Part shown: positions 4,383 through 26,374 of the stretch, in pieces | Numbering within the stretch: the first letter of the stretch is position 1 | How the letters are laid out: each line of letters opens with the position of its first letter | DNA from: Chthoniobacteraceae bacterium | GTDB lineage: Bacteria > Verrucomicrobiota > Verrucomicrobiia > Chthoniobacterales > Chthoniobacteraceae | NCBI GenBank assembly: GCA_031409655.1 | Contig: JANNXQ010000256.1 | Coordinates: 1-39,327 of the forward strand | Direction: 5' to 3' | Length of the DNA stretch: 39,327 nucleotides | The notes under the pieces: generated by a model | The model's input: only the letters and a program-made list of their open reading frames with translations | The model's database searches: none | Told to the model about the DNA's origin: nothing | Translations under genes and position numbers: made by a program

Positions 4383-4637
4383 CCCCTGTTCAGGAAACCC
4401 CGAAGCGGGTTCAAGGGCGAAGCATCCGTGCTCAAGGCGGTCGCCTTCGTGTTCAGGAAAGAGGGATCCCTGTTCAAGGACGCCGCATCCCTGTTCCGGA
4501 AAGAGAGATCCCTGTTCAGGGACGCCCCATTCCCGTTCAGGGACGCGAGATTCCTGTTCAGGGACGCCCCATTCCTGTTCAGGGAACTGAGATTCCTGTT
4601 CAGGGAACCGGGATTCCTGTTCCGGGAGGCAGGATTC
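4383..4637. repeat. Array of 12 degenerate 21-bp units (near-palindromic TYCCTGTTCAGGGA + 7 variable nt)
   Basis: GTTC/GCTC cores at 4388, 4409, 4430, 4451, 4472, 4493, 4514, 4535, 4556, 4577, 4598 and 4619, an exact period of 21. Confidence 0.9.
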
Positions 4638-5042
4638 GGGAGAGCTTTCCGAGTCCTGCGAGACCATTTTCCGGCAAATTTTTCCCGCCCCAGTCGCGAA
4701 TTGCCCTTTACCCCCGCCCTCACCTCCGGCAGCGTCAAGCGCCGTGAGTAAAGCGGTTTTCCCCATCCGAAAGCGTGGCTATTCCATCGGCAAGACCGTG
4801 GACGACGCCATGGTCGCCATCGAGCGCGACAACCCGCGCCTCAAAGGCGTCCTCCCCAAGGACTACGCCCGCCCCGGCCTCGACAAGCAGCGCCTCGGCG
4901 AACTCATCGACCTCATCGCCACCATCAGCCTCATCGCTGCCAGCGAGGGCGAGAAGACCCACCGCTCCGTCGATCTGCTCGGGCGCGTTTACGAATACTT
5001 CCTCACCCGCTTCGCCAGCGCCGAGGACAAGAACGGCGGCCA

Positions 5043-5106
5043 TTCGAGCGGAGCGAGAAAGACTGCCATAGGCAGCCCGCAGGGTGAACGCGGGGGGCGT
5101 TCATCA
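5043..5106 (+). mobile_element. 64-bp mini-hairpin insertion 1 in hsdM
   Basis: Removal restores GGC CAA TTC (GQF). Closely similar to the copy at 18841-18903. Confidence 0.8.
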
Positions 5107-5162
5107 ATTCTAAACCCCGTCCTGCGTCGTGCGCTGCCTCGTCGAGATGCTCGCCCCCTACA

Positions 5163-5231
5163 CTGCCCTGCGCGGCAGCGCATTCCTTCAAAGCGAAGCC
5201 TCACCGCAGGTCGTGAGCGCAGCGAAGGACA
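5163..5231 (+). mobile_element. 69-bp mini-hairpin insertion 2 in hsdM (in frame)
   Basis: Removal restores CCC TAC AAA GGC (PYKG). Contains GCGAAGC, ACCGCAGGT and GCGCAGC hairpins. Confidence 0.75.
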
Positions 5232-5343
5232 AAGGCCGCATCTACGACCCCGCCTGCGGCTCCGGCGGCATGTTCGTGCAGTCGGAAAAATTCGCCGAAT
5301 CCCACGGCGGCAAGTTGGGCGACATCAGCATCTATGGCCAGGA

Positions 5344-5424
5344 CAAATGGGCGCGGCGGCAGCGCCCATTTGGTCTCGCAATGCGAGCCCGCAGGGTGAG
5401 GCTGCGGCGGCAGCAGCCGAAACA
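5344..5424 (+). mobile_element. 81-bp mini-hairpin insertion 3 in hsdM (in frame)
   Basis: Removal restores CAG GAA AGC AAC (QESN). Stems CAAATGGGCGC/GCGCCCATTTG, CTCGCA/TGCGAG, CCCGCAGGG. Confidence 0.8.
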
Positions 5425-5503
5425 AAGCAACGCCAGCACCCACCACCTCGACGTGATGAACCTCGCCCTGCGCGGCATCGAAGCCGACTTCGGCCCTGAG
5501 CAC

Positions 5504-5626
5504 ACCGTCACTTTCGGGTTTTGCGACCCGCTAAACCGGGAACGCCGCTTCATTCCAATGCGGCTCGACGACGCCCCCATCAAGGGCTCCTTGGCGCAGT
5601 TCCTTTACATCAACTTGCTCCCAGAG
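5504..5626 (+). pseudogene. C-terminal half of a TIR (TIR_2-like) domain fused in frame to the hsdM remnant
   Basis: TFGFCDPLNRERRFIPMRLDDAPIKGSLAQFLYIN matches, from recall, the 'TFRFRDPLNKERRFIPLRLDDAPIKGSLAQFLYINW' segment of PVC-bacterial TIR proteins. Confidence 0.65.
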
Positions 5627-5673
5627 TGCAGACTTTTCCAGCTACGCGACCAAGACAAAACATCCCAATACCC

Positions 5674-8600
5674 ATGAACCCATTCACAATCGTAGTTACA
5701 AGCAGCATCGACGGATTGATTGAGGCGCAGGAAATCGTCAAGGAAGTTACTGCAAAGAGGGACGTTCAGCTTATTTGGCATCCGGATTCCGACCGGCTTC
5801 AAACAGAAATTCTTTCGCAATGCGAACGCGAGATTTCCGATTGCGACTGCGTCTTAACCGTTGTGGGCCACCGATACGGCGAATTCCTTCCGGGGAAAAG
5901 AATATCGCTCGGTCACGCGCAAGTGGACTTCGCGTTGGCCCGATCGTTCAGACCACTCCTGGCCTTCAAGCTGCCCGGCACTCAAGCAGACTTCCTCCCA
6001 CGAGAGAGCCACGATGCTAGGATGCGCATGGTGAAAGACCTACATGACAGTCGCGTTCTGAACGAAGTCTCTGATCTCGATCAATTCCAAAAGAGCTTGG
6101 TGAGAGCGCTTTGGTGGCTGCTCATAGAGTCCCGTCAGACTCGGAAAATTATTTTGGTGAGCAGCACATTTGCCGATCTCAAAGAGGCCAGGGGCGAACT
6201 CCAAGAGGCGGTGGGGACGTATTCGACGGGAATGCCTTGCGTTATGTTTGAGGAATTACCGAAAGGACTTTCAGCTGAAGACACATCCCGGCGGTTGGCC
6301 GAACAGACTGGTTTGTATTTTGGGTTACTATCGGATTATCGGGGGTCGGTTATTCCCGGCAAGAAGCTCAGTTATACCGAGATCGAGTATGAGGCGACCT
6401 ATAGTCTGCAACGAAGTCCAATTGTCGTATTTGAAGCCGACGATCCAAGTCTCCTTAAATCGCACGAGCAAAGCGCTGACGATTTTGAAAGAGTCAGGGA
6501 ATTCAACGCCCTTCTTCGCGAACGGCACAAACCGGTCCGCCGCTTTCGCCGGTTGGGACATCTCTACAGTTTGGCGATCGATGCATTGGGGGAATTGGAA
6601 AGAGCCGGCAAGCTGAACCGTGACGTGAACACAAGTGCGTCGGACTCGACTCTTGGTCCTCAACCTCCGCAGCCATTCTTTGTCCAGGAATATAGCCTCG
6701 CTGTTGAAACGAATCTCGTCGGACGGGACGACGAACTGCGCGCTCTGGACGGATGGCTCACGGATTCGAGAGCACCTCATTTCGGAGCGCGCATCTATTG
6801 CATCGACGCGGCTGGCGGAATGGGCAAGAGCGCCCTCGCTTGGAATTGGTTGCAGCGCCTTCTCTCAAAATCAACGCCTCACTTTGAGGCCGTTGCCTGG
6901 TTCAGTTTTTACGCAGTGGAAACCGGGTTTGATGTTATGGCAGAGACTGTTCTGCCCTATCTCCTGCGGCTGCCAGGACTCGAACAGATTCGTGACGCCG
7001 ATGTCTCATCTCTCGAGAAGCTGCTGCGCATCGTGGAAGAACGGCGGATTCTTCTCGTTCTCGATGGTCTTGAGCGCCGGATGAAACTCTACACAAAATT
7101 TAGAGCTCGTGGATACGAGGGACGTGACCTCATGGAGCTTGTCGAGGAACGCGTTGAGTTTCATCGCCACTTGTTCGGCGAATGGCCCGACGAAATTGCG
7201 CGCCAACTTGCCAGGGAGGATTGCTATCGGATGACCGATGAGGAGGCCGAGGTGCTCCGCCGACTTGCCCGCCCCGGACGTTCTCGCGTGCTGATCACAT
7301 CGCGTTTCTTTCCATCCGATCTACAGGACCGATCGACGCCAATTACCGGCGCCACGACTCTCCCTGACCCTAAAAACCTCGCCGGTGTTGCTCGGCTGCC
7401 GCTTGAACCGTTCGATTTGCCCACAGCTCGGGAACTTGCTGTGGCTTTGGATCTGCCATGGCAGCAGGAGTTTTCGGGTCTCCACAGCAAAGTCGGAGGA
7501 TACCCTCTCTATTTAGCGTTGGCATTCGCGTTTGCCGCACGGGGCAAAGACTCTCCAGAGGAATTTCCCCGCCGAATCGCAAAAATTGCCTCTGCCCTTC
7601 GGGGCGATGCGGAAGAGGCTCGTATCGCGGTCGTGACGCTTGGCATCGACGATCTTTCAGACGAACACCGGGAAGTTCTCTATGAAGTGGAGTTCTGCCC
7701 AATCGCAACCAGTTTCGTTGACCTCCAGAGGGTCCTTTGTGGGCCGCAAGCGCTCTTTGAGCGTCCTTCGGAACTCGAGGCGGACCTGCGACTTTTGCAC
7801 TCCAGGAAGCTCGTAGGGTGGGATCGTCAGACGGGCAGTTGCGACATGCACCCGGTGGTTCGTCATGCAGTGCGACACTTTGGAGATCAAGGTGCAATTA
7901 ACCAGCGAATCATTGACCGACACGGCGGTGATTCTCAGGAGGCGTTGGCTGCCTCAGGCGCATCAGCGGTTAACGAGAGCTTCGGCGAGCTACTGCTTCG
8001 GCTCAACGCATTCAGCCGGAAAGAGTCGCATTCTGAAAAGGCGTTTGTCGCCTACCTGGTTTTCGTGGACGACTGGTTCCGATATAACTCCTCACAAATT
8101 GACAAGCGGTTGGAGTATCTGGAGGAATTCTACCAACATGAGTTCAAGTATTCAGTCCCGGCGCGCATCGGACTTCTCACTCGTCTCGCGGACACCTTTC
8201 TTCTCAAAGCACAACTTGATCGCGCGCAACGACACGCCACACGGGCGTTTGAACTGGCGACGCAATCCGCCGACGGGAGTTTAATTCGAATGGCGTGCAA
8301 CGTGTGCGCCGATATCGCTAGTAGCCAAGCTCGTCGCTTCGAAGAGGATCGGTTTCTACGAACTGCGGCGCAACACGAAATCTTTTCACTATCGGATCGG
8401 TCTTGCGTTTGGTTGCTGTGTTCGCAAATCGCAGTAAACGCAGCCACTTCGAGGATAGATGAGGCGGTTCATGTTCTTTCCTACCTACAATCACACTACC
8501 CAAGCGATGCCGACGTTATCAAGGGGGAATTCAATTTGGCCGCTGCACAGTGGCTAAAGGGTGAGCGGCAAAGGAGTGTGCTGGAGGAAATCCTCGCCCG

Positions 8601-10302
8601 ATTTCGCAGCGATTGTTTTTCTCGCAACCTTGTTTACGGGCGTCTCCACAGTGTAATCATGTCCGCCGAGCTCGCCCTGCTTTTTGGCGAGAGTCCTGAA
8701 TGCCAGAAGCTCGTTGATGATACTTTAAGCGACGTGGAGATGACGCGGTTTACCGCCTCCCGGCTCGAATTGACCGGCAAACGGGCTCGGCTCGCGACCA
8801 GGCGAGGGCGGCCGCAGTCAGCGTTGGAGGAAGGCCGGCGGGTTCGCAACGAGGCGCAACAGCGTGGACTATCTTGCATCGAAGCGGAGGCCTGTCTGGC
8901 AATTGCGGAGGCACACTTTGCCGTTAATGAACGAGAACCGGCTACTCACTTCGCAAAGGAGGCGGCCAGCCTAGCCAATGCAGACGGTGAGCCTTATTGT
9001 CTGCGCTTGCTGAAGAACCAAATTCACCAGTTCTTCACCGAGCATCTTCAAGAGCCCGTGCCCGAGTTCCCGCCGTGCCCAGCTCAGCGGCTCTCGGAAC
9101 TTCCCCCGATGCCCCCAATTCCAGCTCCGACTCCGACAATTACAGACGTTTCCGACACGAGTGGCTGGTCCGACGAACAGATCGATCGCCACTATTGCGA
9201 GGTTCTCGTCAGGGTCGAATGGGCCAACACGACCGGTTCGGCTCGAAAGTGGTGGGAAGCCTTTGAAAGCGAGAACGCACATCGCAAGGCACTCGTTCTC
9301 AGGTTGGCTGAGTCGCTCGCGATCTCCAAAGCGACAATTACCGAATTCTTCCTAGCCTATGTCTATTCAAACACCGACAACATTCAGGCGAACCTTGACT
9401 ACATGCACTATTCGAGGTTGAAGAAACACGAGGAGGCTACAAAGAAAGCAAAGGAGAAGGGGGAACCCGTGCCACCGCTTCCCTTTACCCCAGCGGACGC
9501 ACAAGCGCTCCCGGCGGGAGTTTCGGATTCTCGCGGGTGGACGGACGAAGCGGTCAGACATCGGCTCGACGAGGTGAAGAATTTCTTGGATTGGCCGGCG
9601 ACCACCGGTTCGGCACGCAAATGGTGGGAAGCGTTTGAGCAGGAGAACGGCCATCGGATGGTGCTGGTGCTCCGGCTGGCGGAGGAACTCCATATTCGCA
9701 AAGCGACAATCACAGAGTTCTTCCTCGCTTATGTCTATTCAAACACGGACAATATCCAAGCGAACCTTTACTATCTCGAATATTCCCGGCTGAAGAAGTG
9801 GGAAGAACAAACGAAGCGGCAGAAGGAGGCCGCAGATCGTTTTCAAGCGTTGCTACCGGAACTGGCACCCGACCACAAGCTGCCAGAGCTAACGGAGAAG
9901 GATCTCGAAATTCTCGATGCACTCTCTGAGGAGGACATTCCAACAGACGTTCGCGAGCGGTTCGATGAATCACTGAGAACCGCGAGACAGCGAATCGCGG
10001 CTCACAAGGAGCGGGAAGTGGCCGCAGCGAACCGCCGATTGGCGGAACTGGTCCCGCAACTGGATTCCAGCGGTCCAGTCCCGGTCTTGACGGCCGAGGA
10101 TGCGAAAATTCTGCGGCTTGCAACAACCGACCACCTCCAAGCGCCAGTGCTTGCCAAGTTGCACGAGGCAATCGGTAGTGCTCTCGACGCTAAGGGGGAA
10201 GCTAGTGATGATCTCGTTGAACTATTCGGCGAGACAAATTCTCCCGAACATGATGGCGGAACGAATTCCGCTCCAGAGGATCCCCTCGGGGACAAGCCGT
10301 GA
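5674..10302 (+). CDS. NLR/STAND-like protein: tandem DUF4062 domains, P-loop NTPase, helical/TPR-like region, duplicated C-terminal domain (~1542 aa)
   Basis: DUF4062-like 'ILVSSTFADLKEARGEL...YFGLLSDYRGS...SYTEIEY' preceded by a degenerate copy. 'LVGRDDEL', Walker A AAGGMGKS (6808-6831), Walker B ILLVLDGLE, 'RVLITSR', 'GGYPLYL', 'DMHPVVR'. Visibly less GC-rich than flanks. Start at ATG 5674. Confidence 0.85.
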   Translation: MNPFTIVVTSSIDGLIEAQEIVKEVTAKRDVQLIWHPDSDRLQTEILSQCEREISDCDCVLTVVGHRYGEFLPGKRISLGHAQVDFALARSFRPLLAFKLPGTQADFLPRESHDARMRMVKDLHDSRVLNEVSDLDQFQKSLVRALWWLLIESRQTRKIILVSSTFADLKEARGELQEAVGTYSTGMPCVMFEELPKGLSAEDTSRRLAEQTGLYFGLLSDYRGSVIPGKKLSYTEIEYEATYSLQRSPIVVFEADDPSLLKSHEQSADDFERVREFNALLRERHKPVRRFRRLGHLYSLAIDALGELERAGKLNRDVNTSASDSTLGPQPPQPFFVQEYSLAVETNLVGRDDELRALDGWLTDSRAPHFGARIYCIDAAGGMGKSALAWNWLQRLLSKSTPHFEAVAWFSFYAVETGFDVMAETVLPYLLRLPGLEQIRDADVSSLEKLLRIVEERRILLVLDGLERRMKLYTKFRARGYEGRDLMELVEERVEFHRHLFGEWPDEIARQLAREDCYRMTDEEAEVLRRLARPGRSRVLITSRFFPSDLQDRSTPITGATTLPDPKNLAGVARLPLEPFDLPTARELAVALDLPWQQEFSGLHSKVGGYPLYLALAFAFAARGKDSPEEFPRRIAKIASALRGDAEEARIAVVTLGIDDLSDEHREVLYEVEFCPIATSFVDLQRVLCGPQALFERPSELEADLRLLHSRKLVGWDRQTGSCDMHPVVRHAVRHFGDQGAINQRIIDRHGGDSQEALAASGASAVNESFGELLLRLNAFSRKESHSEKAFVAYLVFVDDWFRYNSSQIDKRLEYLEEFYQHEFKYSVPARIGLLTRLADTFLLKAQLDRAQRHATRAFELATQSADGSLIRMACNVCADIASSQARRFEEDRFLRTAAQHEIFSLSDRSCVWLLCSQIAVNAATSRIDEAVHVLSYLQSHYPSDADVIKGEFNLAAAQWLKGERQRSVLEEILARFRSDCFSRNLVYGRLHSVIMSAELALLFGESPECQKLVDDTLSDVEMTRFTASRLELTGKRARLATRRGRPQSALEEGRRVRNEAQQRGLSCIEAEACLAIAEAHFAVNEREPATHFAKEAASLANADGEPYCLRLLKNQIHQFFTEHLQEPVPEFPPCPAQRLSELPPMPPIPAPTPTITDVSDTSGWSDEQIDRHYCEVLVRVEWANTTGSARKWWEAFESENAHRKALVLRLAESLAISKATITEFFLAYVYSNTDNIQANLDYMHYSRLKKHEEATKKAKEKGEPVPPLPFTPADAQALPAGVSDSRGWTDEAVRHRLDEVKNFLDWPATTGSARKWWEAFEQENGHRMVLVLRLAEELHIRKATITEFFLAYVYSNTDNIQANLYYLEYSRLKKWEEQTKRQKEAADRFQALLPELAPDHKLPELTEKDLEILDALSEEDIPTDVRERFDESLRTARQRIAAHKEREVAAANRRLAELVPQLDSSGPVPVLTAEDAKILRLATTDHLQAPVLAKLHEAIGSALDAKGEASDDLVELFGETNSPEHDGGTNSAPEDPLGDKP
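9148..9804 (+). repeat. Internal duplication (period 372 nt / 124 aa) of a ~95-aa domain in the STAND gene
   Basis: Two copies of SD..GW.DE...V....W..TTGSARKWWEAFE.EN.HR..LVLRLAE.L...KATITEFFLAYVYSNTDNIQANL.Y..YSRLKK.EE, with SD starting at 9151 and 9523. Confidence 0.95.
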
Positions 10303-10693
10303 GTTTCGTTTGATCGGCGAGAGACGATCGCTGGTCCATCCTATACATGCGTAATCTCGGCCGCTTCATCGTGGAAGAGGGTCGTCAACACGAAACGGCC
10401 AATCTCCGTCGAGGACTCACTAGCTGACTGGAGAGCCGGATGGGGAAAAACCGTCCGTCTGGGTCAGAGGAAGGCGCGGCGTAACCCAAGGCGCCATCCC
10501 ATCCTGTATTTGGTTGCCACGCATGGCACCTTCGGTTGCAGCAAAGACAAGCGCCGCAAGCCGGCGAACCGCTTCAGGGACGCCAAAGACCCGTTCCGCA
10601 TCGTGATCGTGCGCGACATGTGGCTGACCAGTTTCGACGCGCCCTGCCTGCACACCATGTATGCCGACAAGCCGATGCAAGGCCACGGCCAGG

Positions 10694-10772
10694 GGAAGGA
10701 CGAAGGATGAATGCAGAAGGAAGAAGTTCAGGCGGCTCCGGTTCATCCTTCATAATTTTGCCTTCATACTTT
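10694..10772. repeat. Heptamer inverted-repeat element (GAAGGAT-type) at an hsdR deletion junction
   Basis: gaaggacgaaggatgaatgcagaaggaagaa ... ttcatccttcataattttgccttcatacttt. Confidence 0.75.
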
Positions 10773-10895
10773 GCGCCGCGGCGGCCAGGGCAATCCGACC
10801 TTCGACACCGCGCAAGCCATCGCCGTGATGCTGGAGAAACACGGCGTCGCCTGCGACCTGATGCACGGTTTCAACTGGGACAAGTGGACCGGGGC

Positions 10896-10967
10896 AAATG
10901 TCGAATGACGAATTCGGAATGACGAATGGTCGGGACTTCGAACTTCGCACTTCTGCATTCGAACTTT
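10896..10967. repeat. Heptamer inverted-repeat element (GAATGAC / TTCGAAC-type) at an hsdR deletion junction
   Basis: aaatgtcgaatgacgaattcggaatgacgaat ... acttcgaacttcgcacttctgcattcgaacttt. Confidence 0.75.
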
Positions 10968-11059
10968 CCCAGAGCGTGACCATCGACTGGACCCTCCACG
11001 AAAGCGCGCGTGCCAAGATCAAGGTGATGGTGAAACGCATCCTGAACAAACACGGCTAT

Positions 11060-11139
11060 TGGCTTCCTCGCTGCCGCCGCTCGGTCGGGCTGCGCCCAAT
11101 GCTGCGCATTGCCTGTCTCAGTCGCCCTGCTCCTTCGGC
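11060..11139 (-). mobile_element. ~80-bp mini-hairpin insertion 4 in hsdR (reverse orientation)
   Basis: Splits the GY|xPDLQ motif. The reverse complement GCCGAAGG...GCAATGCGCAGCATTG GGCGCAGCCC...GGAAGCCA is followed by target A. Confidence 0.75.
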
Positions 11140-11374
11140 TCGCCCGACTTGCAGGACGAGGCAGTGAAGACCGTGCTGGCACAGGCGGAGCTGCTGTGCG
11201 CGGAGTGGGTGTGAATCAAATCGCAGCCAGGCCCCAGCGTCGCGCAATCCTCACATCCCCCCTAGGATTGAAAAGGAACGGAAACCGGCGCGAACTTCGG
11301 TAGTCGGCCTGAGTAAAGTAAACTGAAGATTCATCGTCATCCGCTTTTCACCGTCGCACTGCATGAAATCCGAA

Positions 11375-11631
11375 GAACGCCAACGGCGTTTCATCCATCA
11401 GCCCGGCGAGGAGACGGAGGGGAATAGAGAAGATGGTGGGTGGGCGAGTAGGTTGCGAGGCACGAGCTACCCTGGGATTGAGCATCAAAATAGGCACAAC
11501 CCTGAAAGGGTTGAGTCAATCGTCGTGGAGGACGAAACCCCTTCCGGGTTTATCGCGCATTTGCCCTATGAAACCCAGGGTAGCTCGTGCCTCGCAACCC
11601 TGCGCTGGAAGATGGAACGCCGTTGGCGTTC
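11375..11631. repeat. Nested palindromic REP/REPIN-like element
   Basis: Terminal IR gaacgccaacggcgtt (11375-11390) / aacgccgttggcgttc (11616-11631). Perfect 26-bp inner IR 11451-11476 / 11574-11599. Internal hairpin aaccctgaaagggtt. Confidence 0.85.
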
Positions 11632-11962
11632 TCGCAACGGGACTGGACGCAGCGGATAACTGCTCGTCATCGGACAGGGTGAGAATGGGCGTCTCAGAAA
11701 TGAAATAACGGGCTGTCGCGCAGGAGCCTGAGGTTTGTCGGGCTTTGTCTGTATCTTTACTCTGGAAAGGCTGGCGGATGGCCTTGGTTGGCACGCGTAA
11801 AGCTAAGTCGTATTTCGGCTTCAGGAATAACTCTGAAGCTAACGTAAAGTGAAACCAAATAAAACCAAAGAGGTCAGCCAACCTCCGCCGATCTGGGGCC
11901 AGGATATCCACTGGGGCCAGCGGCACTGGGCGGCCATCCCTCCGAATAGAACTAATCAGTCC

Positions 11963-12586
11963 ATGTCAAACATAACCATCCTCGTCGCTGAACTGACGAA
12001 CTTACAAAAGCTCTTCCGTGGGGAAGATATTATCACGAAAGGAACGGGGAATTCCAACGTGCCTGGCAACGGTCCCGCGCTGACGGCCTTTAGCGCGGCG
12101 CAGGCAGCCTTCCAGGCGGCGGAAGCCGCCATGGAGGCGCATCGCACCGCGGGCGCCACGATCACGGCGACCCGGGACGCGGCGCTAACCGTCTGGATGC
12201 GGGATCTCACGAGTCTCGCCGCCTTCACGGAGAGCGCCACGGGTGGTGATCCGGAAAAGATCCTGAGCGCCGGCTTCGGCATCAAAGCCCCGCCCTCCCC
12301 GCCGCAACCCGTAGGCCAGGTGCAAAACGTGCGCGTGGCCTTCAATGGCGAGCCCGGCAAGTCCGTGGTGCGCTGGAAGCGCGATGCCAATGCCGATGCC
12401 TACGTGATCCAGTGCAGCCAGGATCCGAATGGCGAAGGCAACTGGGTCTATATGGCCACGACGCCGGAGCCGAAATTCACCGGCAATGGAGCCATCCCGG
12501 GCAAACCCTGCTGGTACCGCGTCGCCGCGGTGAACCGCCTCGGCCAGGGGCCGTGGAGCGAGCCGGCGCTGCGTCCGGTAATGTAA
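11963..12586 (+). CDS. Helical N-terminus + fibronectin type III domain protein
   Basis: C-terminal FN3 signature 'VRW......AYVIQ...W.......G...G..CWYRVAAVNRLGQGPWSEP'. ATG 11963 chosen; alternative GTG 11849. Confidence 0.8.
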   Translation: MSNITILVAELTNLQKLFRGEDIITKGTGNSNVPGNGPALTAFSAAQAAFQAAEAAMEAHRTAGATITATRDAALTVWMRDLTSLAAFTESATGGDPEKILSAGFGIKAPPSPPQPVGQVQNVRVAFNGEPGKSVVRWKRDANADAYVIQCSQDPNGEGNWVYMATTPEPKFTGNGAIPGKPCWYRVAAVNRLGQGPWSEPALRPVM

Positions 12587-12593
12587 CCGCCCA

Positions 12594-12731
12594 GAAGTTG
12601 AAGGTTGAGTGTTGAGTGTTGCGAGTCAGCCGCGCGACCGCAGCGATGCGGGCTCCGCGGGAATGGAAGGTGGATGGCCTTTGTGGTCGTCGCTCCTGGA
12701 GGGGCTCCAACACTCAACCTCAACCTCAACT
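12594..12731. repeat. Heptamer inverted-repeat element (GTTGAGT / ACTCAAC)
   Basis: gaagttgaaggttgagtgttgagtgttg ... caacactcaacctcaacctcaact. Confidence 0.8.
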
Positions 12732-12817
12732 CCGGCAGCCACGCCCCATCGCCACCCAGCAAGATAACTACCGCCACTCACTGACAGCCTGCCACCACTT
12801 TCTACTAACCCATTACC

Positions 12818-13234
12818 ATGCCTTTCAATCCTAACTTACCGCTCGATGGCTCCCTGATGGTCGCCGCCGAAATGCGGGACCAATTCAACGGACTCGATAC
12901 GAAGATCAATCACATCCCCGCCGGACCGCCGGGACCGCAGGGTCCACAGGGCGATCCCGGACCGGAAGGACCAACGGGTCCGGAAGGCGCGCAGGGACCG
13001 CAAGGCGAGCCAGGGCCCGCGGGAGGTCCGCCGGGACCACAGGGCGAACCGGGGCCGCAGGGACCGCCCGGCGAAGTGACCGAGGCCCAGCTCGAGTCGG
13101 CGATGGCTACAACGGCGCTGAACCCGAATGCCGTGGGCCCCTACACCGGCACCTTCAGCGACCCGCCGACGCAGGCCGAGATGCAGGACTTCGCCGGCTA
13201 TGTGGAAACGCTCCGCATCTCCCTGACGCGATGA
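12818..13234 (+). CDS. Small collagen-like protein (G-X-Y repeats)
   Basis: About 16 GXY triplets ([15 protein letters not shown]...) flanked by 'MPFNPNLP..G....[10 protein letters not shown]' and '[10 protein letters not shown]'. Confidence 0.85.
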
Positions 13235-13265
13235 CGCGAAGGGCACCCACGGCAAATCCGACGCC

Positions 13266-14171
13266 CTACGGCGCCAGCGGCAGCTTGGCGCGGATGCGGT
13301 AGAACTTCTTCGACGCCGGCGTATCATTAAAACGCTCGAAGTTCGTCACGCCACCATCCGGAGGGATGTTCGTCAAGGCGGGTGCAAAGGCAGCGATGAG
13401 ATCGGGACTGATCTCGATGCTGTACTTCCGCGATTGTTTGCTCGTCCAAGTAAGGTCGCTGACCACTGGGCCGACTCCACCGATCTGCCGTGGTGCGATG
13501 AAGGCGGTGATGAGCAGGCGATCGGCGGGATTAAAGGGATCGGTGTCCGCCGCGTATTCCTCCACATCGAGTTCCCCATCGCTGTCGCGGTCGCCGGTCA
13601 GTGTTAGTTTCGTGAGATCATTGGCCCCGACGAAAAGGCGCTCCCAGTTATCCGGGATGGTATCCGCATCCGCATCAAGTCCTGGCGCGATCGAGGTCGT
13701 CCTGACCGTCACGCCCGTTTCGCTGAGCGCGATCCAGCCGACATTCGCGCCCCACGCATACCCGAGAAGACGGCCCGTCGCGAGATCCACCCGTGGGTTG
13801 CCGCCGTTCTCAAAGACGATCCAGCCGATATTCGCGCCATAGGCATTCCCACGCAGCTTCGCCTCGCAGATCGTGCCGTTGGCAAAGTATTGCTCGGTGT
13901 TCACGCCAAAGTCGGCGGCCGAGTTATTCAGGTAACGGATGCCATTGGTCGGCGTGCCGTCGCCGAGATGGATCCAGCCGCAGTTCGCGGAGTAGATGAA
14001 GCCAGAGCAGACGAATTCGCCGACGACGGCGCCGTTAGTCACATCGCCGCGGGCGGCGATCCAGCCGATGTTCGCGCCGTAGGCGTGGGAGTTTGCGACC
14101 GCGAGGTCGATGTTGGTGTCTGCTTGCGCGCCGAAAGACGCGAGGAGAAGCAGGGCGATGGAGGTTTTCAT
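13266..14171 (-). CDS. Secreted protein with four 'AYGANIGWI'-type repeats, Ca-binding DxDxD motifs and a C-terminal beta domain
   Basis: Signal peptide; AYGANIGWI / IYSANCGWI / AYGANIGWI / AWGANVGWI; DADADTIPDNWE, DRDSDG..D..EY.ADTDP; C-terminal 'FYRIRA'. Confidence 0.8.
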   Translation of the reverse strand: MKTSIALLLLASFGAQADTNIDLAVANSHAYGANIGWIAARGDVTNGAVVGEFVCSGFIYSANCGWIHLGDGTPTNGIRYLNNSAADFGVNTEQYFANGTICEAKLRGNAYGANIGWIVFENGGNPRVDLATGRLLGYAWGANVGWIALSETGVTVRTTSIAPGLDADADTIPDNWERLFVGANDLTKLTLTGDRDSDGELDVEEYAADTDPFNPADRLLITAFIAPRQIGGVGPVVSDLTWTSKQSRKYSIEISPDLIAAFAPALTNIPPDGGVTNFERFNDTPASKKFYRIRAKLPLAP

Positions 14172-14192
14172 GGTTAGTGATGGAGTAGGAGG

Positions 14193-15878
14193 TTAGTGAG
14201 CGAAATTGGCGTTGGGTTCGACATTCGTCAGGGTCGAGGCGGCGGCATTGCCGGCGGCGGCGGGCGCTCCGGCGGCGGTCATATCCACGATCGGGCCGTA
14301 GCGGTTACTCAGGGCGATGTCGTAGTTGTTGATCGCGTTGTTCGAGGCGGTGTTGCGGACGATGACGTTTGCGGCGCCGTCCACGTCGATGCCGCGATCG
14401 TTGCCGGTCACGCTGTTGCCTTCGATGCGGTTGCCGGTGGAGAGGGTGTGGATGCCGGCGCCGGCGCCCGCCAGGACGCCATTGCCGCTGGCGTTGCAAC
14501 CGGTGACGAGGGTGTTGAGTGCGATGCGGATGCCGTCGCCGGAGTTCGCGTTCGCGGTGCAGGTGCTGATCGTCGAGCCGTCACCGGCGAAGATGCCCGC
14601 GCCGGTGCCGCTGTTCACGATCGCGTTGCTGTTGCTATTGCCGGTGGCGTTGCAGCCGGTCATCGTCGTCTGGGAGAGTGCGAAGATGCCGGTCGAGACG
14701 GCCGCGGTGGAGGCATTATTGCGGGCCGTGCAATGGGTGAGCGTACTGCCCGCCCCGGCAAAGATCGCGCGGGCGGCCACGTTACCACTGGCTGTGCAGT
14801 TCGTGAGGGAACTGCCGTCGCCCGCCGAGATCGCGGTGCTGCCGACCGCGCCCGTGGTCCCGTTCGTGACCGCCGAGCAGCCCGCTAAGATGGCGCCTGC
14901 TGCCGCAAAGATCCCGAGGTTTGTGTTACTCAGCGCCGTGCAGTTTTGCACGCTCGCGTTGTCGGCAAGGTTGAATCCATCCTGATTGTTCGCTGCGGTG
15001 CAATTGATCAGTGAACAGCCGAAGCCTCCGACGAATCCGCCACCCGTGGTCTGTTTTGCGGCGGCACTGTTTTGGACGACGCAGTTTGCCGAGCACGAGA
15101 ATCCATCGAGGCCATTGCTCACCGCGCTGCACTCGCTCACGCTGCAGTAGTCCGAGAGGCTGAATCCACTCGAGGCATTCGCGGTGGCGCTGCAGCCTGC
15201 GATGGCCGAACTCCCGGCAATGCTGAAGCCAGTGAAGCCATTCCCGGAGGCCACACAATCGCGCACGGTCGCACTCGACCCGATATTGAAGCCGGCTCCC
15301 GTCGCGCCGGTCTGTCCGACCGCGGTGCATTCGATGACCTTGAACGAAGTGCCGGTGAAGATGCCCGTGCCGGCGATGGCCCGCACTTCGCAATTCCGCA
15401 CCGTGCCGTTGTTCCCGACCCGGATCCCCGTGCCGGTGCCGGTATGCACACGCAGATGCGAGACATTGGTTTCGGTCACGTTCCCAAAAACCCCATTGGT
15501 GCTCCAGCCACGCAGGGTGCCGTTGCGGATGGTGGCGTTCACGTTATTCACGCGGATGCCCGTGAGCCCGGTCCCGCCGCCCACCAGTTCGAAGCCGCCG
15601 AGATCGAGCGTCACATTATCCGCATTGATGGTGATGCCATTCTGCCCAGCCACGCCGGTGAGATTGCCAGTGACAAAGTAAGACCCCGCCGTGGCAATGA
15701 CAAACGGCAGCGTCGAGATCGGCGTGCGCGGCTCGATCTGATCGAGCGTCTTCATCGTCGGCGCGGGGGCACCCGGCGGCGTGAGCAGGCCTTGGGCGAG
15801 AATCAAGGATGAAGGGTGAAGGAGGAAGGCGGCGGCGAGGAGAGCACGCGGGAAGAATGTGGGTCGAATGGTGTTCAT
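14193..15878 (-). CDS. Secreted right-handed beta-helix repeat protein (paralog 1)
   Basis: Signal peptide + QGLLTPPGAPAPTMKTLDQIEPR, 'VTLDLGGF', and ~22-aa 'C.A..N...G' coils. Confidence 0.85.
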   Translation of the reverse strand: MNTIRPTFFPRALLAAAFLLHPSSLILAQGLLTPPGAPAPTMKTLDQIEPRTPISTLPFVIATAGSYFVTGNLTGVAGQNGITINADNVTLDLGGFELVGGGTGLTGIRVNNVNATIRNGTLRGWSTNGVFGNVTETNVSHLRVHTGTGTGIRVGNNGTVRNCEVRAIAGTGIFTGTSFKVIECTAVGQTGATGAGFNIGSSATVRDCVASGNGFTGFSIAGSSAIAGCSATANASSGFSLSDYCSVSECSAVSNGLDGFSCSANCVVQNSAAAKQTTGGGFVGGFGCSLINCTAANNQDGFNLADNASVQNCTALSNTNLGIFAAAGAILAGCSAVTNGTTGAVGSTAISAGDGSSLTNCTASGNVAARAIFAGAGSTLTHCTARNNASTAAVSTGIFALSQTTMTGCNATGNSNSNAIVNSGTGAGIFAGDGSTISTCTANANSGDGIRIALNTLVTGCNASGNGVLAGAGAGIHTLSTGNRIEGNSVTGNDRGIDVDGAANVIVRNTASNNAINNYDIALSNRYGPIVDMTAAGAPAAAGNAAASTLTNVEPNANFAH

Positions 15879-15908
15879 GGAGGTAGTGATGCGGATTGGC
15901 TGTCGGGA

Positions 15909-17192
15909 TTAAAAGTTCGCCCACGGGCTGGTCGCGGTGCTGGGGGTCTGGATCGGCCCGATGTTTGCGCCCGTGCTCACATCGTAGTTTGCGGTGGCGT
16001 TGCCGGTCGCGCTGTTGCGGACGACGATGCTCGTGCCACTGGTGCGGATTCCATATTGGCTGTTGCTGACGACGTGATTGCTGTCGATGCGATTGTTATC
16101 TCCGTTGGTTCGGATGCCGTCGCCATTAGGGGAACTCCCGCCGTTATGGCTGGAGTTGCAACCCGTGACCAGGCAACTGCTGGCCACGCGGATGCCGACC
16201 GCTTTGTTGTAATTCGTCGTGCAATCCTTAATGGTCACGCCAACGTCAGCGGAGATCCCCATGCCAGTCGAGATGCTGGCGGGTGCAGTGCTCGAATTGC
16301 TATACGAAGTGCAGCCGATGATGGTCGATCCGGCGTCGGCGCGAATGCCTCCCGAAGTCGCTGCGGTGCTGCTGTTGAAACCAGCGGAGCAGTGCGTCAT
16401 CGTACTGGCTTGGCCGAGAAGAAAACCCCATTCCGTCTGGTTTGCGAACGCCGTGCAGTTGGTCACCGTGCTGCCGACGCCGATAGAGATCGCGGCGGTA
16501 AAGGCATTGTTCATGGCCGTGCAGTTGACCAGCGTGGAGCCGCCGCCCGCGCCAATGGCTGCGGTGCCGTTGGAAGGGGCTTGGTTATCCGTCACCGTGC
16601 AATTGCTAATCACGCATCCGGCACCGGCAGAAATAGGGCTGCCGAAATTACTATAAGCCTTGCACCCGTCGATTTGCCACCCGTTGCCAGCGAGCAGGAT
16701 CGGCTGGCCTGTGCAACCCGAGGCCGAAAGCTGCAAAAAAGCGCCGCCACGCGCCACGATGGATAAGGACGACACGCACTGGACGGCACGACCCAACCCC
16801 GCAAGCGCGCCATTTTTCACCACGCAGCGATCCGCCGTGGGAGCGATAGTAATGCCTTCGCCCCCCGTCCCGGAACTGCGCGAGATGAGAAACCCCTGAA
16901 GATCGATCGTGACGCCGGCGACGGTCACATGAATCCCATTCGGCTTCGTTATCCCCAGGTTGGAACTCAAGTAATAGCTCCCGGGCGCGCTGATGATGTA
17001 ATGATAGTTAGCGTCATTCGGCAGCGGATTGACCGTCCGCTGGAGATTGATGCGCGGCTCGATCTCATCGAGCGTCTTCATCGTCGGCACGGGCGCGCCG
17101 GGCGGGGTGAGGGTGCCCTGGGCAAGGATGACGGCTGAAGGTTGAAGGATGAAGAAGCCGATGAGCAGCGTGAGATGGAGGGTGGGTTTCAT
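15909..17192 (-). CDS. Secreted right-handed beta-helix repeat protein (paralog 2)
   Basis: MKPTLHL...AQGTLTPPGAPVPTMKTLDEIEPR, 'VTIDLQGF', beta-helix coils, C-terminal PWANF. Start at ATG 17192. Confidence 0.85.
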   Translation of the reverse strand: MKPTLHLTLLIGFFILQPSAVILAQGTLTPPGAPVPTMKTLDEIEPRINLQRTVNPLPNDANYHYIISAPGSYYLSSNLGITKPNGIHVTVAGVTIDLQGFLISRSSGTGGEGITIAPTADRCVVKNGALAGLGRAVQCVSSLSIVARGGAFLQLSASGCTGQPILLAGNGWQIDGCKAYSNFGSPISAGAGCVISNCTVTDNQAPSNGTAAIGAGGGSTLVNCTAMNNAFTAAISIGVGSTVTNCTAFANQTEWGFLLGQASTMTHCSAGFNSSTAATSGGIRADAGSTIIGCTSYSNSSTAPASISTGMGISADVGVTIKDCTTNYNKAVGIRVASSCLVTGCNSSHNGGSSPNGDGIRTNGDNNRIDSNHVVSNSQYGIRTSGTSIVVRNSATGNATANYDVSTGANIGPIQTPSTATSPWANF

Positions 17193-17216
17193 AGTGGTTA
17201 GTTTACGGATGGGAAC

Positions 17217-17309
17217 GTAGCACTGGGCTTGAGCCCGCACCGGCTGCGCTCACTGGGACGGCGTGCGGATTTTTCAGGCCACGCGGTGACGGGCTGAAGC
17301 CCTGGACTA
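17217..17309. repeat. GTAG-type REP doublet
   Basis: gtagcactgggcttgagcccg (17217-17237) and inverted cgggctgaagccctggacta (17290-17309), which overlaps the Calx-beta gene stop. Confidence 0.6.
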
Positions 17310-18689
17310 TTTTTTTGCGCATTCGACATAGACGGTGCCGGCTTTGGTGAATGTGTCGGTGTGGCCCAGGTCGTCGCTCGCGGCGACTTCCACGCGGAAG
17401 GCGTGGCCGGCAGACTTGCGCGGAAAGCTGAGGGCGAGTTGCAAGGTCACGGTCACGCCGTCGGGACCGCTGCCAGTGACGGTCGTCTGCGCCAGGTCGA
17501 GCCGGGCGCGCTTTGTTTCCAGCACGCTGTTACTTCCTGGTAACTGCCCATGGCCGAAGGTCACGGCATCCTCGCAATCGTCGCCGTCGTGATGATGACC
17601 CTTGCGCCGACGGTCGTGTTTCTTCCCGCGCGTCTCCGCGAGGCTGAAGGTATTGCTCGCCTCATCCCAGCGGACATAGAGCGCGGTGTCGTGGCCGTCG
17701 CGCAGGCGGAGGTCGATGGTCTTCAAGGCGCGCCACACTTCACCCTCCGGCACGGTCCAGATGACGGTGAAGAGTTGCGTCTCCTCGACGGGCACGCGCG
17801 CTTTGTCAGGCGCGAAGTCGAAGGCGCCCGTGGTGAGTGTGAAGTCGCGGATGGTGCAGGTCGCGCTGCCATCCGCGATCGTCCCGCCGGTCGCGTTACT
17901 CAGGGTTACTTGGAAGGTCTCGTCGGGCTCGGTCAGGTCATCCCCGAAGATAGGCACGCTGATCTGCCCGGACGTGGCGCCTTGCGGGATGTCGAGCGTC
18001 CCGAGGCGCCCGCCGTAGTCGGACGGATTCGGATCGGTGATACTCCCGCTGCCGGCGGTGGCCGTGCCAGGGACCGTGGCGAAATGCACGGTCGTGCCGC
18101 TGAGGGTGCCATCGCCGGGTTTGGGATGGGATAAGGTGACGGTAAAGTTCACGTTGCGCGTCTTCGTTTTGCCGAAGGGTTCGCTCGCGGAGATATCGGC
18201 GATCGAGATGCGCGGCGGGCCGTCGTCGTTGCGGATGAGGCCGAGGGCGCTACTCGAGCCGGAGGTCGTGCGCGCGCCGACGATGTTCTGCGCCACCAGA
18301 GCGAAGACTTCATCCGGCTCGATGCTCGGGTCGCCGAAGACCGTCACGGTCACACTCCCTGCTGTGGCGCCGGCTCGGATGTTCACGGGCACGCTGCCCG
18401 GATTCAGGAAGTCCACGCCCGAGCCAGGCGCAGCGCCTGCCGTCGCCGCAGCGGTGCCCACCGGCGTCAAGAACCCCGAGGACAAGCTCACGAGCGCCGA
18501 GACCGTCGTGGCACTCGGACGATCCAGGGTCACGCTGAAGACCAGCGTGGTCGTGCCCGAGTCGCCCTCGAAGACTTCCGCATCGTGGAGGGTGAGGATG
18601 GGAAGATTGCTTTGAGCGCGCGCGAGCGGTGGGGAGAGGGTGAGGGCAAGGAGTGCGGCGAGCGCGACGGAGTGGAGGCGAGTGTTCAT
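17307..18689 (-). CDS. Secreted protein with two Calx-beta domains
   Basis: 'EGDSGTTTLVFSVTL', 'GD..IEPDE.F', 'I.NDD', second copy 'GDDLTEPDETFQVTLSN'. Signal peptide from ATG 18689. Confidence 0.85.
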   Translation of the reverse strand: MNTRLHSVALAALLALTLSPPLARAQSNLPILTLHDAEVFEGDSGTTTLVFSVTLDRPSATTVSALVSLSSGFLTPVGTAAATAGAAPGSGVDFLNPGSVPVNIRAGATAGSVTVTVFGDPSIEPDEVFALVAQNIVGARTTSGSSSALGLIRNDDGPPRISIADISASEPFGKTKTRNVNFTVTLSHPKPGDGTLSGTTVHFATVPGTATAGSGSITDPNPSDYGGRLGTLDIPQGATSGQISVPIFGDDLTEPDETFQVTLSNATGGTIADGSATCTIRDFTLTTGAFDFAPDKARVPVEETQLFTVIWTVPEGEVWRALKTIDLRLRDGHDTALYVRWDEASNTFSLAETRGKKHDRRRKGHHHDGDDCEDAVTFGHGQLPGSNSVLETKRARLDLAQTTVTGSGPDGVTVTLQLALSFPRKSAGHAFRVEVAASDDLGHTDTFTKAGTVYVECAKK

Positions 18690-18735
18690 GGTTTGGTGAT
18701 GGGTAAGTCGTGATGCATTCGGAGCACGGCAGCAG

Positions 18736-18949
18736 GCTTTGGAGTGCGGCGACTTGTCGCCGCTTTGTAGTGGCGGAAACTTGTTTCCCGCGGCGGGGAG
18801 ATGACGTGTCGCTGCGCAACTCTCCCCGCCACTGCGGACATTCGAGCGGAGCGAGAAAGCCTGCCGAAGGCAGCCCGAAGGGCAGCGCCGGGGGGCGCCG
18901 GCAACTCCGCACCGCCGCAAAGCGGTGACAAGTCACCGCACTCCAAAGC
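18736..18949. repeat. GGAG-type REP doublet (REPIN-like) carrying a nested insertion
   Basis: IR gctttggagtgcggcgacttgtcgccgctttg (18736-18767) / caaagcggtgacaagtcaccgcactccaaagc (18918-18949), each arm itself a hairpin. Confidence 0.85.
18841..18903 (+). mobile_element. 63-bp mini-hairpin insertion 5 (homologue of insertion 1)
   Basis: TTCGAGCGGAGCGAGAAAGCCTGCCGAAGGCAGCCCGAAGGG...GGGGGGCG...CA. Removal restores the hairpin TGCGGA-CAAC-TCCGCA. Confidence 0.8.
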
Positions 18950-19027
18950 GCCTGGCCGCAGCGCGCGTGTGCTAGCCGGGGGGAAATTCGGATGCGGGTG
19001 GGAGAAGCACATATTCGTTCCTCCAGG

Positions 19028-20089
19028 CTACGGCGTGCCGAGGAATTTATTCGTCGAGGACACCGTGCCCGTGCCGATGACGCTGCACCCGATGGCGACG
19101 TTGGCCTGGAGCGCCACGCCGCCATTGCGCGAGCCGCGGCAGAAGCTCGCGGTGCCATTGACGGTGAGCCCAAACGCGCCCGAGACACTGCTCCCAAAGC
19201 AATGGTGGGCATTCGATCCGCCCAAGCCCACGCCAGAGGTGCTGACGCCCGTCGAGTTGCTGGCCATCACGACCGAAACGCCGTTGGCGGAGACGCTGGT
19301 GCCGTGGCAATTGCTGGCGGTTCCGGCCTCGATCCCCTTCCCGGCGGCGGCGACCCCGCGACAGTTTTCCGCCAGCACGCAGTTGATGGCGTCATCGGCG
19401 CCCGTGGCGCCGACGGATTCGGCGTAGGAATCGGTGACCGTGCCGCCGACGATGCCGAATGTGCCACTGACGTTGACCGCGCAGTCCCGCACCAGTCCGC
19501 CGGTGATCCCGGCACCGGCGCAGACGGAGACCGCGCAGCGTTCGATGACCAGGGTGGGAACGTCGCTGAACGCCAGAAAGATCCCGTCACTTCCCACGCC
19601 GCTGACGCTGACCTCCGAGACTCGGAGATTGTCGCTGGAGGGACTTGCGCTGGACGTGCTCACGCCGTCGAGAAATCCCCCTGGCGTGAAGGTGCCGGCG
19701 GCGAAGGTGGTGGTCCCGCGGATGTGGCCGTTTCTGACGGTGACGTTCCTGCGCACGCCGGTGATGGTCACGGCGTTCCCCGCGGCCGGGCTGGCGGTCG
19801 AGGAGATCGTGAAGCCATTGAGATCGAGGGTCACATTATCCGCGGCGATGGTGATCGCGGTGCCGGTGGCGACGGTGAGGTTGCCCGTGAGGTAGTAGCT
19901 GCCCGACGCGCCGAGGACGAAAGGCGCGCTGGAGATGGGCGTGCGGGCTTCCAACTGATCGAGCGTCTTCATCGTCGGCGCCGGCGCGCCGGGCGGGGTG
20001 AGGGGGCCCTGGGCGAGGAGGAAGGATGAGGGATGAAGGATGAAGGATGCGGTGAGCAGCGTGAGGAGGAGGGCGGATGGGGTTTTCAT
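19028..20089 (-). CDS. Secreted right-handed beta-helix repeat protein (paralog 3)
   Basis: AQGPLTPPGAPAPTMKTLDQLEAR, 'GSYYLTGNL', 'VTLDLNGF', short Cys-containing coils. Confidence 0.85.
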   Translation of the reverse strand: MKTPSALLLTLLTASFILHPSSFLLAQGPLTPPGAPAPTMKTLDQLEARTPISSAPFVLGASGSYYLTGNLTVATGTAITIAADNVTLDLNGFTISSTASPAAGNAVTITGVRRNVTVRNGHIRGTTTFAAGTFTPGGFLDGVSTSSASPSSDNLRVSEVSVSGVGSDGIFLAFSDVPTLVIERCAVSVCAGAGITGGLVRDCAVNVSGTFGIVGGTVTDSYAESVGATGADDAINCVLAENCRGVAAAGKGIEAGTASNCHGTSVSANGVSVVMASNSTGVSTSGVGLGGSNAHHCFGSSVSGAFGLTVNGTASFCRGSRNGGVALQANVAIGCSVIGTGTVSSTNKFLGTP

Positions 20090-26143: not shown

Positions 26144-26286
26144 CAGCCTATCGAAAACATTCTGGGGCCTCGGTGGATGGCGTCGCTTCGCGCGCAGCGC
26201 CACTCTGAAAGATGGGCCTGTGGCCAGAGTTCGGCATGGCGCGCGGAGCGACGCCATCCACCGAGGATGCGTTTTTCAACAGGCTG
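26144..26286 (-). mobile_element. IS5-like MITE copy A (degenerate, 143 bp)
   Basis: Follows CTAG 26140-26143. Ends CAGCCTATCGAAAA...TTTTTCAACAGGCTG. Inner IR ctcggtggatggcgtcgct / agcgacgccatccaccgag. Reverse-complement homologue of 34250-34411. Confidence 0.8.
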
Positions 26287-26374
26287 GTCGGCCAGCGATT
26301 CGGAAACGACCGCTGCACTTTCACTCGCCGAGACGCTTGCCACCGCACCAGACGACCCTTTAATACCCGCCACT

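Follow-up and report, generated by a model that had tools for sequence, protein, structure and literature searches.

Probable gene-less mobile mini-elements in hsd stubs of a Chthoniobacteraceae bacterium, with a likely kinship to the core of E. coli tRNA-linked repeats

The stretch of DNA analyzed here (the window) comprises 39,327 nucleotides of a Chthoniobacteraceae bacterium and is contig C256 of a 95%-complete, 6.85-Mb assembly with 63% GC (JANNXQ010000256.1, GCA_031409655.1). It carries an internal fragment of hsdM and a 3ʹ fragment of hsdR with a cargo gene between them, and, further downstream, a small palindrome. Five short inserts lie in these hosts, and this work concerns these inserts and their relationship to the tRNA-linked repeats (TLRs) of E. 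coli. An earlier note, made from the letters of this DNA alone, had described the five inserts, and their positions and lengths were borne out (Table 1). The note had also named hsdM and hsdR as the genes that were hit; the locus was right, but both are stubs and not whole genes.

Table 1. Features of the window, and related features in other contigs and loci. A slash marks the point of insertion in a protein motif; family A and RtT are introduced in the text.
Feature	Position	Strand	Description
Insert 1	5043..5106	+	64 nt; family A, very probable TLR/RtT core homolog; in hsdM stub at GGQ/F; 73.8 bits
Insert 2	5163..5231	+	69 nt; second type; in frame at PY/KG of hsdM stub
Insert 3	5344..5424	+	81 nt; four-hairpin layout; in frame at GQE/SN of hsdM stub
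Insert 4	11060..11139	-	80 nt; family-A-like variant; in hsdR stub
Insert 5	18841..18903	+	63 nt; family A; in loop of small palindrome; 76.9 bits
REP-like inverted-repeat element	18736..18949		32-nt arms; host of insert 5
hsdM stub	4775..5677	+	internal fragment; host of inserts 1–3
Cargo gene	5674..10302	+	DUF4062 + AAA_16; ~1,540 aa from overlapping ATG; between hsdM and hsdR stubs
hsdR 3ʹ stub	10536..11214	+	host of insert 4
Heptamer-repeat hairpin inserts	~10696-10772 and ~10897-10968		other class; in hsdR stub
Shorter relatives	G000 C66 61903-61935	-	
Shorter relatives	C31 725; C39 39257; C99 66401; C233 113; C289 45812		
Element-stuffed hsdM stubs flanking cargo	L244 1056-2639 (G054); L245; L246; L247; L249; window 4775-11214		

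Each of the five sites is also known in an empty state. In one genome (G025), the hsdM allele is continuous across the sites of inserts 1 to 3, insert 4 is missing from 12 hsdR rows (10 distinct loci), and 15 paralogous palindromes in the same genome are without insert 5. Independent metagenome contigs join across insert 1 (X1, X2, and X15), insert 2 (X2), and insert 3 (X2), where the RNA contigs carry no evidence on expression. As the note had said, the inserts have no terminal inverted repeats, no open reading frame, and consistent ends: all five are preceded by (G/C)A, terminate in CA, and are followed by A. The note had further stated that precise removal restores conserved protein motifs, and this held for GQF, PYKG, and GQESN of hsdM; in hsdR, removal restores GY(S)PDLQ (GYxPDLQ in the note) but leaves GYSPD, and all empty rows read GYPPD. 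Since the relatives of insert 1 at the same hsdM site are 63 nt long, the window copy seems likely to have gained one base, which broke the frame.

The inserts were compared using a covariance model (family A) trained on 50 Verrucomicrobiota copies, hand-picked from 77 non-redundant ones, mostly shorter forms. In the window, inserts 1 and 5 scored 74–77 bits. Inserts 3 and 4 were the next-best matches (18.4 and 15.0 bits, with the best unrelated match at 13.5), and by eye they appear to share, weakly, the four-hairpin layout, with a long and perfect first hairpin in insert 3. Insert 2, which has a short first hairpin followed by a branched stem, scored 8.2 bits, a background level for this model. 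By these sequence comparisons, the five inserts are a superfamily with shared ends and not the single family that the note had seen. The inserts outside family A also have relatives elsewhere: a copy of insert 2 with 68 of 69 bases identical lies at a different hsdM site in another genome (G091, L183), with relatives at further sites and two matches in a metagenome scan, both within hsdM, and relatives of insert 4 were found at other hsdR sites.

Family A is widespread. A strict pattern for it matched 23 of the 101 related genomes that served as the panel for presence and absence counts, compared with 0 for reversed-pattern controls, and the covariance model matched 51 of the 101, with patchy presence among close relatives. 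The genome of the window holds 18 copies, by profile and by covariance model alike. A GTDB scan yielded 122 stretches among the matches listed, containing at least 130 distinct copies, nearly all from Verrucomicrobiota, including the cultured Chthoniobacter flavus and Luteolibacter marinus. Near-identical copies occupy unrelated sites (a 68-nt variant was found at 12 sites), copies occur nested within one another and head to tail, and hsdM alleles show mixed filled and empty states. The hosts at 30 loci included IS3, IS4-type, and other transposase genes, hsdM, hsdR, yhcG, thiC, and heptamer repeats. Copies lie on either strand of host genes. Phage contigs gave 13 matches for family A and 0 for the short variant. 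Taken together, the inserts are very probably mobile elements that carry no gene, as judged from their sequences and distribution.

Several individual copies and forms were also recorded. In G023 C1 (L009), a complete genome without a model match, spacer 21 of a 42-repeat CRISPR array matches the 5ʹ part of the family. The thiC frame of G070 (L001 875-1948) remains open across a 63-nt family A copy, and G048 C2 9500-12500 (L254) has a tandem repeat with units of 133/203 nt that carries family A five times in identical copies. Shorter relatives of 30–55 nt retain the first hairpin and the CA end. In the 50–55-nt forms, 2 nt separate the first hairpin from a single stem, whose loop is AT-rich, and CA comes last; the 30-nt minimal form consists of the first hairpin, an AG spacer, one hairpin, and CA.

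The layout of family A comprises a first hairpin starting from the first base, a spacer of 2–3 nt, a variable hairpin, a CCC-GNA-GGG hairpin, a fourth hairpin, and a (G/T/A)CA end. In the alignment of the 50 copies, 91% of 893 cells were paired, and two-sided changes numbered 179, compared with 56 in shuffles and 19–42 in slid controls. At 94 of 97 sites the first base pairs and covaries with base 17, and since the first and the last hairpins both covary, each end has a near-terminal palindrome. In hairpins 2 and 4, the mismatches were strongly one-sided (GA/AG 41 vs. TC/CT 4), while G·T wobbles showed no excess (GT/TG 7 vs. AC/CA 6). The middle base of the CCC-GNA-GGG loop was A in 71, C in 36, G in 9, and T in 7 cases. 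In DNA, exceptional stability is described for GNA triloops that contain a sheared G·A pair (PMC3201870). Given the strong covariation, the G·A bias, and the lack of a G·T excess, it is quite likely that the functional form is one folded DNA strand, the top strand. Counts and energies of hairpins carry no part of the case for the elements, which rests on covariation and on the filled and empty comparisons: GNA mini-hairpin clusters in the whole genome (147) showed no excess over two control motif sets (208 and 28), and standard folding energies were significant for inserts 1 and 3 only, with unremarkable z values for inserts 2, 4, and 5 (-0.8, -0.5, and 0.0). We assume that the energy model gives no bonus to GNA loops or sheared G·A pairs.

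The pattern also caught copies from Rouxiella and Amphritea, which lie in the T-loop of duplicated tRNA 3ʹ ends. The Rfam model RtT gave the enterobacterial and Amphritea copies 49–84 bits (threshold 45). In the reverse direction, a model built from Verrucomicrobiota only was run on the whole E. coli K-12 genome at E<=10 and returned 10 matches, all 10 at the proK, lysT/lysV, tyrT, or serX repeats, although their scores were low (12.5–30 bits), which speaks against the kinship. The TLRs (tyrT repeats, RtT/RttR, Rfam RF00391; RrA/B/F) have the same order of parts as inserts 1 and 5, namely a hairpin closed by bases 1 and 17, a variable hairpin, CCC-GNA-GGG, and a last hairpin, and in E. coli they lie at GGTTCGA/ATCC, which is an S-A/A-H site like those of the elements described here. 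Inserts 1 and 5 therefore appear, with high probability, to be homologous to the TLR core.

The window copies are nevertheless not TLRs themselves. According to PMC8144298, the 22 TLRs of E. coli at ten loci end in 18–19 bp of the upstream RNA gene, whereas the window copies are free-standing in hsdM, hsdR, and a palindrome, none directly downstream of a tRNA or rRNA gene, and their right flanks are host-gene sequence without an 18–19 bp tail from an RNA gene 3ʹ end. Rfam at the gathering threshold gave no match in the window, including positions 4700-5600, and the best RF00391 score in this genome was 23 bits, under the 45-bit threshold. Because they have no tRNA, no tail, and scores below the Rfam threshold, we regard them as free-standing homologs of the core. 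TLRs were described in 1978 and are given no known function in PMC8144298, where they are transcribed, processed, and treated as RNAs; the words "mobile" and "selfish" are absent from its main text. In bioRxiv 10.1101/2024.07.17.603846, exonuclease-resistant coverage is raised at tyrT/rttR, and circles are not claimed. In TLRs of E. coli and Rouxiella (L153, L067, and L198), the 5ʹ arm is an inverted copy of the tRNA 3ʹ end, except that two bases of the T-loop are exchanged, giving GAGAA for TCGAA. This replacement is possibly a second junction footprint.

The junctions follow a simple rule, S-A(element)A-H, without target duplication. Numbering the two bases on the element's left side as -2 and -1 and the two on its right as 0 and +1, position -1 was A in 127 and position -2 was G or C in 122 of the 130 copies among the GTDB matches listed, for which the left flank lay outside the pattern; positions -3 to -8 were mixed, and the bias was confined to -2 and -1. 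The patterns behind the 130 copies and the set of 123 sites imposed A at position 0, which weakens the evidence on that base; a separate set of 30 non-spacer rows was searched with position 0 left free, where A was found in 30 of 30. One clear copy (C270) keeps G at position 0 and also runs counter to the rule. Position +1 was G in 1 of the 123 sites.

Comparison with empty alleles indicated that the flanks themselves differ between the two states: position -1 changes toward A, position 0 toward A, and position +1 from G to C. At the hsdM site EY/KH, AG stands in each of the 10 empty rows and AC in each of the 5 filled ones, and the same change was seen at four more Lys codons; at SD/WF, TGG becomes A(insert)AT. 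The site of insert 4 is GG/GT in every empty row and GA(insert)AT when filled (GYPPD to GYSPD), and the flanking bases 11059 and 11140 are A on the element strand and G in all empty rows. At insert 5, base 18905 is C, which makes the junction read AC, and 11 of 15 paralogous empty targets have G there, reading AG, with AC in none of the 15; beside insert 3, base 5425 is A, and G occupies this position in 4 of 4 empty rows. No base change at the junction is required for inserts 1 and 2, although in L257 insert 2, located at the identical site, is followed by AC. Heptamer repeats have GT in 37 of 40 cases and AT after the three inserts, and nested copies alter the otherwise invariant GAGA of the host element. 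These differences suggest that the "target A" of the note is probably written in part by insertion, and that insertion is not always precise, as the note had held.

In a census of filled and empty pairs, 37 of 117 sites had an ungapped homolog, many of these at 72–85% identity. Mismatches numbered 13 at position 0 and 15 at +1, compared with 1–11 at other positions; AAG became AAC in 8 pairs and AAT in 1, and 11 of the 37 pairs were unchanged from -1 to +1, a few of the 37 being self or tandem matches that were counted as unchanged. We consider it probable, from these alignments, that insertion rewrites up to three target bases. The low identity of many homologs and the self matches count against this, as do three further points: a G/A difference at position 0 often leaves the encoded residue the same, same-site hsdM copies may share one insertion event, and the +1 base is not inherited among near-identical elements (0.37 vs. 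0.32). The last result also eliminates carry-over of donor flanks as an explanation. Of two other explanations of the tail, a constant AC tail with mismatch repair sparing C·C fits in part, accounting for AG to AC and not for GT to AT or GA to AA. A tail copied from the first bases of the element does not agree with five elements that give AC despite having T at position 2. Hairpin-shaped targets were not enriched among the 117 empty sites, and a search for guide-like covariation between element and target gave only weak, unconvincing links.

The clustering of four inserts in one restriction-modification locus, pointed out in the note, reflects a hotspot common to several genera. In this genome, 8 of the 18 family A copies lie within hsd fragments, an enrichment of about 250-fold if these fragments total 12 kb, an assumed figure. 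Related genera have hsdM stubs with the same sites, filled and empty in mixture, and in G054 a frame of 527 codons is kept through nine inserts. In the window, inserts 2 and 3 lie within an open frame at 5129-5677, which stops in an overlap with the cargo gene's start (ATGA at 5674-5677). Of nine stubs examined, seven end between -17 and +40 nt from the cargo start, two of them by an ATGA overlap, including that of the window. The cargo differs per genome: it is a DUF4062/AAA gene here (PADLOC gave no match for its protein), and elsewhere an oxidoreductase-sulfatase fusion, McrBC/Mrr, DUF4386-LysR-MFS, type III restriction-modification, or a helicase. The hsdM stubs, together with hsdR stubs where these were seen, look like arms of exchangeable cassettes. 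Net insertion lengths were divisible by three in 20 of 20 hsdM events, compared with 2 of 6 for hsdR stubs and, for the family as a whole, 71 of 123; the hsdM list was compiled by hand from events that are not independent, sites with later, slipped copies (59, 62, or 64 nt, insert 1 among them) were entered in their in-frame version, and two entries are net lengths after small flank changes. This in-frame bias suggests selection that keeps the stub translated, and on balance we favor the view that the hsdM stub may serve as a relay reading frame to the cargo. Heptamer repeats are frequent hosts of family A, and a heptamer-repeat insert at ~61070-61510 of G000 C66 encloses a four-helix-bundle PF05635 gene inside an hsdM stub.

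The strand-specific fold and the absence of terminal repeats and target duplication match IS608/ISDra2, TnpA-REP, and PATEs, and for this reason an HUH/Y1-type tyrosine enzyme acting in trans is our tentative candidate for mobilization, although we give it somewhat less than even odds. In the mechanism that we propose, the top strand would be peeled from single-stranded DNA, at a replication fork or in DNA under transfer, and recognized by its shape; a nicking enzyme acting in trans would cut and paste it, joining it into a weakly specified S-R-R-N site, and the junction would be closed by a strand-replacement or repair step that fixes A/A and does not tolerate G at +1. Copies would then survive in neutral DNA such as transposase genes, other repeats, duplicated tRNA 3ʹ ends, and restriction-modification stubs. 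In hsdM stubs only in-frame copies would last, given the stub's likely role of passing ribosomes on to the cargo. A TLR would be this same element in the T-loop of a duplicated tRNA end. We put the probability of this overall explanation (mobile mini-elements with a TLR core, folded single-stranded DNA, an enzyme in trans, target rewriting, and the relay) at roughly 0.6. Of the note's proposal of a non-autonomous, structure-defined mobile family, the mobility and the definition by structure were supported, along with signs of a single-strand fold and the lack of target duplication; the precise insertion and the single family were not upheld.

The search for the enzyme weighs against this explanation in several respects. 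None of the 13 Y1 genes of this genome (a 95%-complete assembly) is flanked by element ends, each having its own repeats or none; several RAYT-REPIN units are present. Clustering 2,679 open frames from the 123 loci revealed no gene recurring in more than four loci, and those that recur are hosts. Y1 genes occur in 72 of 101 genomes, too many for a test of co-occurrence, and at E<=1e-10 none was found in G083 and G069, which have 15 and 6 model matches. No circle or excision footprint was seen, and insert 3 was found at its one site alone, in four genomes, among the pattern matches examined (all but two). The element also has no fixed 4–6-nt target and changes its flanks, while the peel-and-paste insertion of characterized HUH enzymes is precise. 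Among other candidates, the IS91 Y2 transposase was found in 20 of 101 genomes and not in most element-rich ones, PF05635 was found in 65 of 101 and was absent from the E. coli control, the reverse transcriptase PF00078 had no match in this 95%-complete genome, and GIY-YIG and tyrosine recombinases had 2 and 12 matches in it. None of these six enzyme groups discriminates, in a survey with IS110, GxxExxY, and DUF559 outside its scope. No autonomous parent was found among 23 first-hairpin variants, around the Y1 genes, or in the 123 loci. At four loci (L050, L060, L066, and L076), genes of a single Y1/RAYT-like subfamily contain or adjoin a family A copy; they appear to be hosts, although a link to the mobilizer is conceivable.

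These negative results lend some weight to an account without a dedicated transposase, in which the folded DNA is mobile through host annealing and template switching, a topoisomerase, or a ligase, and repair of the tail alters the flank. No partner gene lies beside the 123 loci, the same core extends from Verrucomicrobiota to enterobacteria, and the target is weakly specified. Replaced bases are what annealing and subsequent repair would leave, and the element is not tracked by the IS91 transposase, by four-helix-bundle genes, or by reverse transcriptase. We consider this account unlikely. The ends are base-exact across variants, and even the 30-nt form keeps its first hairpin, AG spacer, hairpin, and CA, which suggests an enzyme reading sequence and shape; the patchy presence among close relatives is a further difficulty.

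A site-specific recombinase, either a tyrosine integrase working on a folded strand in the manner of integron attC sites or an IS110-like enzyme, with a short, mismatch-tolerant core would explain the changed flanks as a core heteroduplex. The CA end of the element mimics the SA of the target, the copies in E. coli sit in tRNA T-loops, a known integrase target, and this genome has its 12 tyrosine-recombinase matches, with IS110 genes occurring in these genomes. Yet such an enzyme should leave the target core at one junction and the donor core at the other, whereas both junctions lose G at +1; near-identical elements do not inherit their +1 base, the 117 empty targets are not enriched in hairpins, and no bridge-RNA-like or integrase gene lies beside the copies at the 123 loci. 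We judge it improbable.

We give a poor chance to the view that insertion is precise at S-A-A-H and that rewriting is only apparent, with pre-mutated alleles as targets and filled alleles spread by recombination. The 11 unchanged pairs and the often synonymous G/A at position 0 agree with it, and filled hsdM alleles are common to several genera and clearly recombine. It requires, however, recurrent prior G-to-C transversions at five conserved hsdM Lys codons, in a sulfatase gene, and in insertion-sequence copies, and one more in the palindrome of insert 5, whose stem is disrupted by the C; for insert 4, a GYPP motif that is invariant in empty rows would have had to change twice, and nested copies change the otherwise invariant GAGA. 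Finally, it is very improbable that the active form is a small RNA of the RtT kind entering DNA through reverse transcription or reverse splicing, since the transcription and processing of TLRs in E. coli (PMC8144298) and the Rfam listing of the family as RNA are set against the lack of a G·T wobble excess, the tandem G·A mismatches, the GNA triloops, the lack of a PF00078 match in this genome, and copies on either host-gene strand.

The window contains further repeats. An array of ~21-nt CCTGTTCAGG repeats lies upstream of the hsdM stub at 4385-4626, and a minus-strand run of beta-helix and Calx-beta genes occupies 13266-20089, with a 190-nt repeat common near their starts. Other REP/REPIN-like families are located at 2196-2302, 11374-11632, 26134-26291, and 34245-34421, and the arms of the one at 11374-11632 resemble those around a RAYT gene on C102.

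Among known systems besides the TLRs, there are close likenesses to the PATEs and SMRs of Haloquadratum and to IS200/IS605 elements (IS608 and ISDra2), which as described in PMC3119063 and PMC3333891 share with the present elements the absence of terminal inverted repeats and target duplication, terminal hairpins, a lack of their own transposase, one active strand (which we infer here), and landing in other mobile elements; the shortest PATE form given in PMC3119063 is 52 bp. The elements differ from them in having no fixed 4–6-nt target, no cognate IS605-type parent that we found, flank bases that change, and hairpins that begin at the very first base, and SMR-A elements are described there with terminal inverted repeats. 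REP, BIME, and REPIN sequences with TnpA-REP (RAYT) are likewise small structured repeats, for which PMC3333891 describes movement in single-stranded form that is attributed to a Y1 HUH enzyme acting in trans. The present elements have no GTAG foot, no inverted doublet, A/A rather than C/T junctions, and no RAYT gene flanked by their ends. Like IS91, a Y2 HUH element, they lack terminal inverted repeats and duplications, and their target resembles S-A-A-S. IS91 targets are conserved tetranucleotides with insertion at the edge, whereas these elements break a four-base motif in the middle and the Y2 transposase does not track them. IS110/bridge elements encode or flank a DEDD recombinase and a bridge RNA, whereas the elements here are 63–81 nt without an open reading frame and IS110 genes are only hosts or neighbors; miniature inverted-repeat transposable elements have terminal inverted repeats and target duplication, and these have neither. 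The literature searched, which covered few subscription papers, held no account of a mobile TLR core, of these Verrucomicrobiota elements, or of the junction rule.

We conclude that this is a real superfamily of non-autonomous single-strand-type mini-elements, of which inserts 1 and 5 are very probably homologous to the known TLR core. It would go further, and we regard it as rather doubtful, to see here a distinct class of shape-defined single-stranded DNA elements of 30–85 nt, ranging from Verrucomicrobiota to E. coli and moved by a target-editing enzyme that writes A at -1 and 0 and turns G to C at +1, with TLRs as its footprints and the stubs as translated cassette arms. Since the junction rule fits none of the transposition mechanisms compared, the enzyme may use a new chemistry for pasting folded single-stranded DNA, and the elements provide substrates for finding it. 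In-frame insertions of 21–27 residues, together with point changes, pass as real protein sequence in annotation pipelines. The free-standing, recently spread cores allow a direct test of whether TLRs are the scars of a mobile element.

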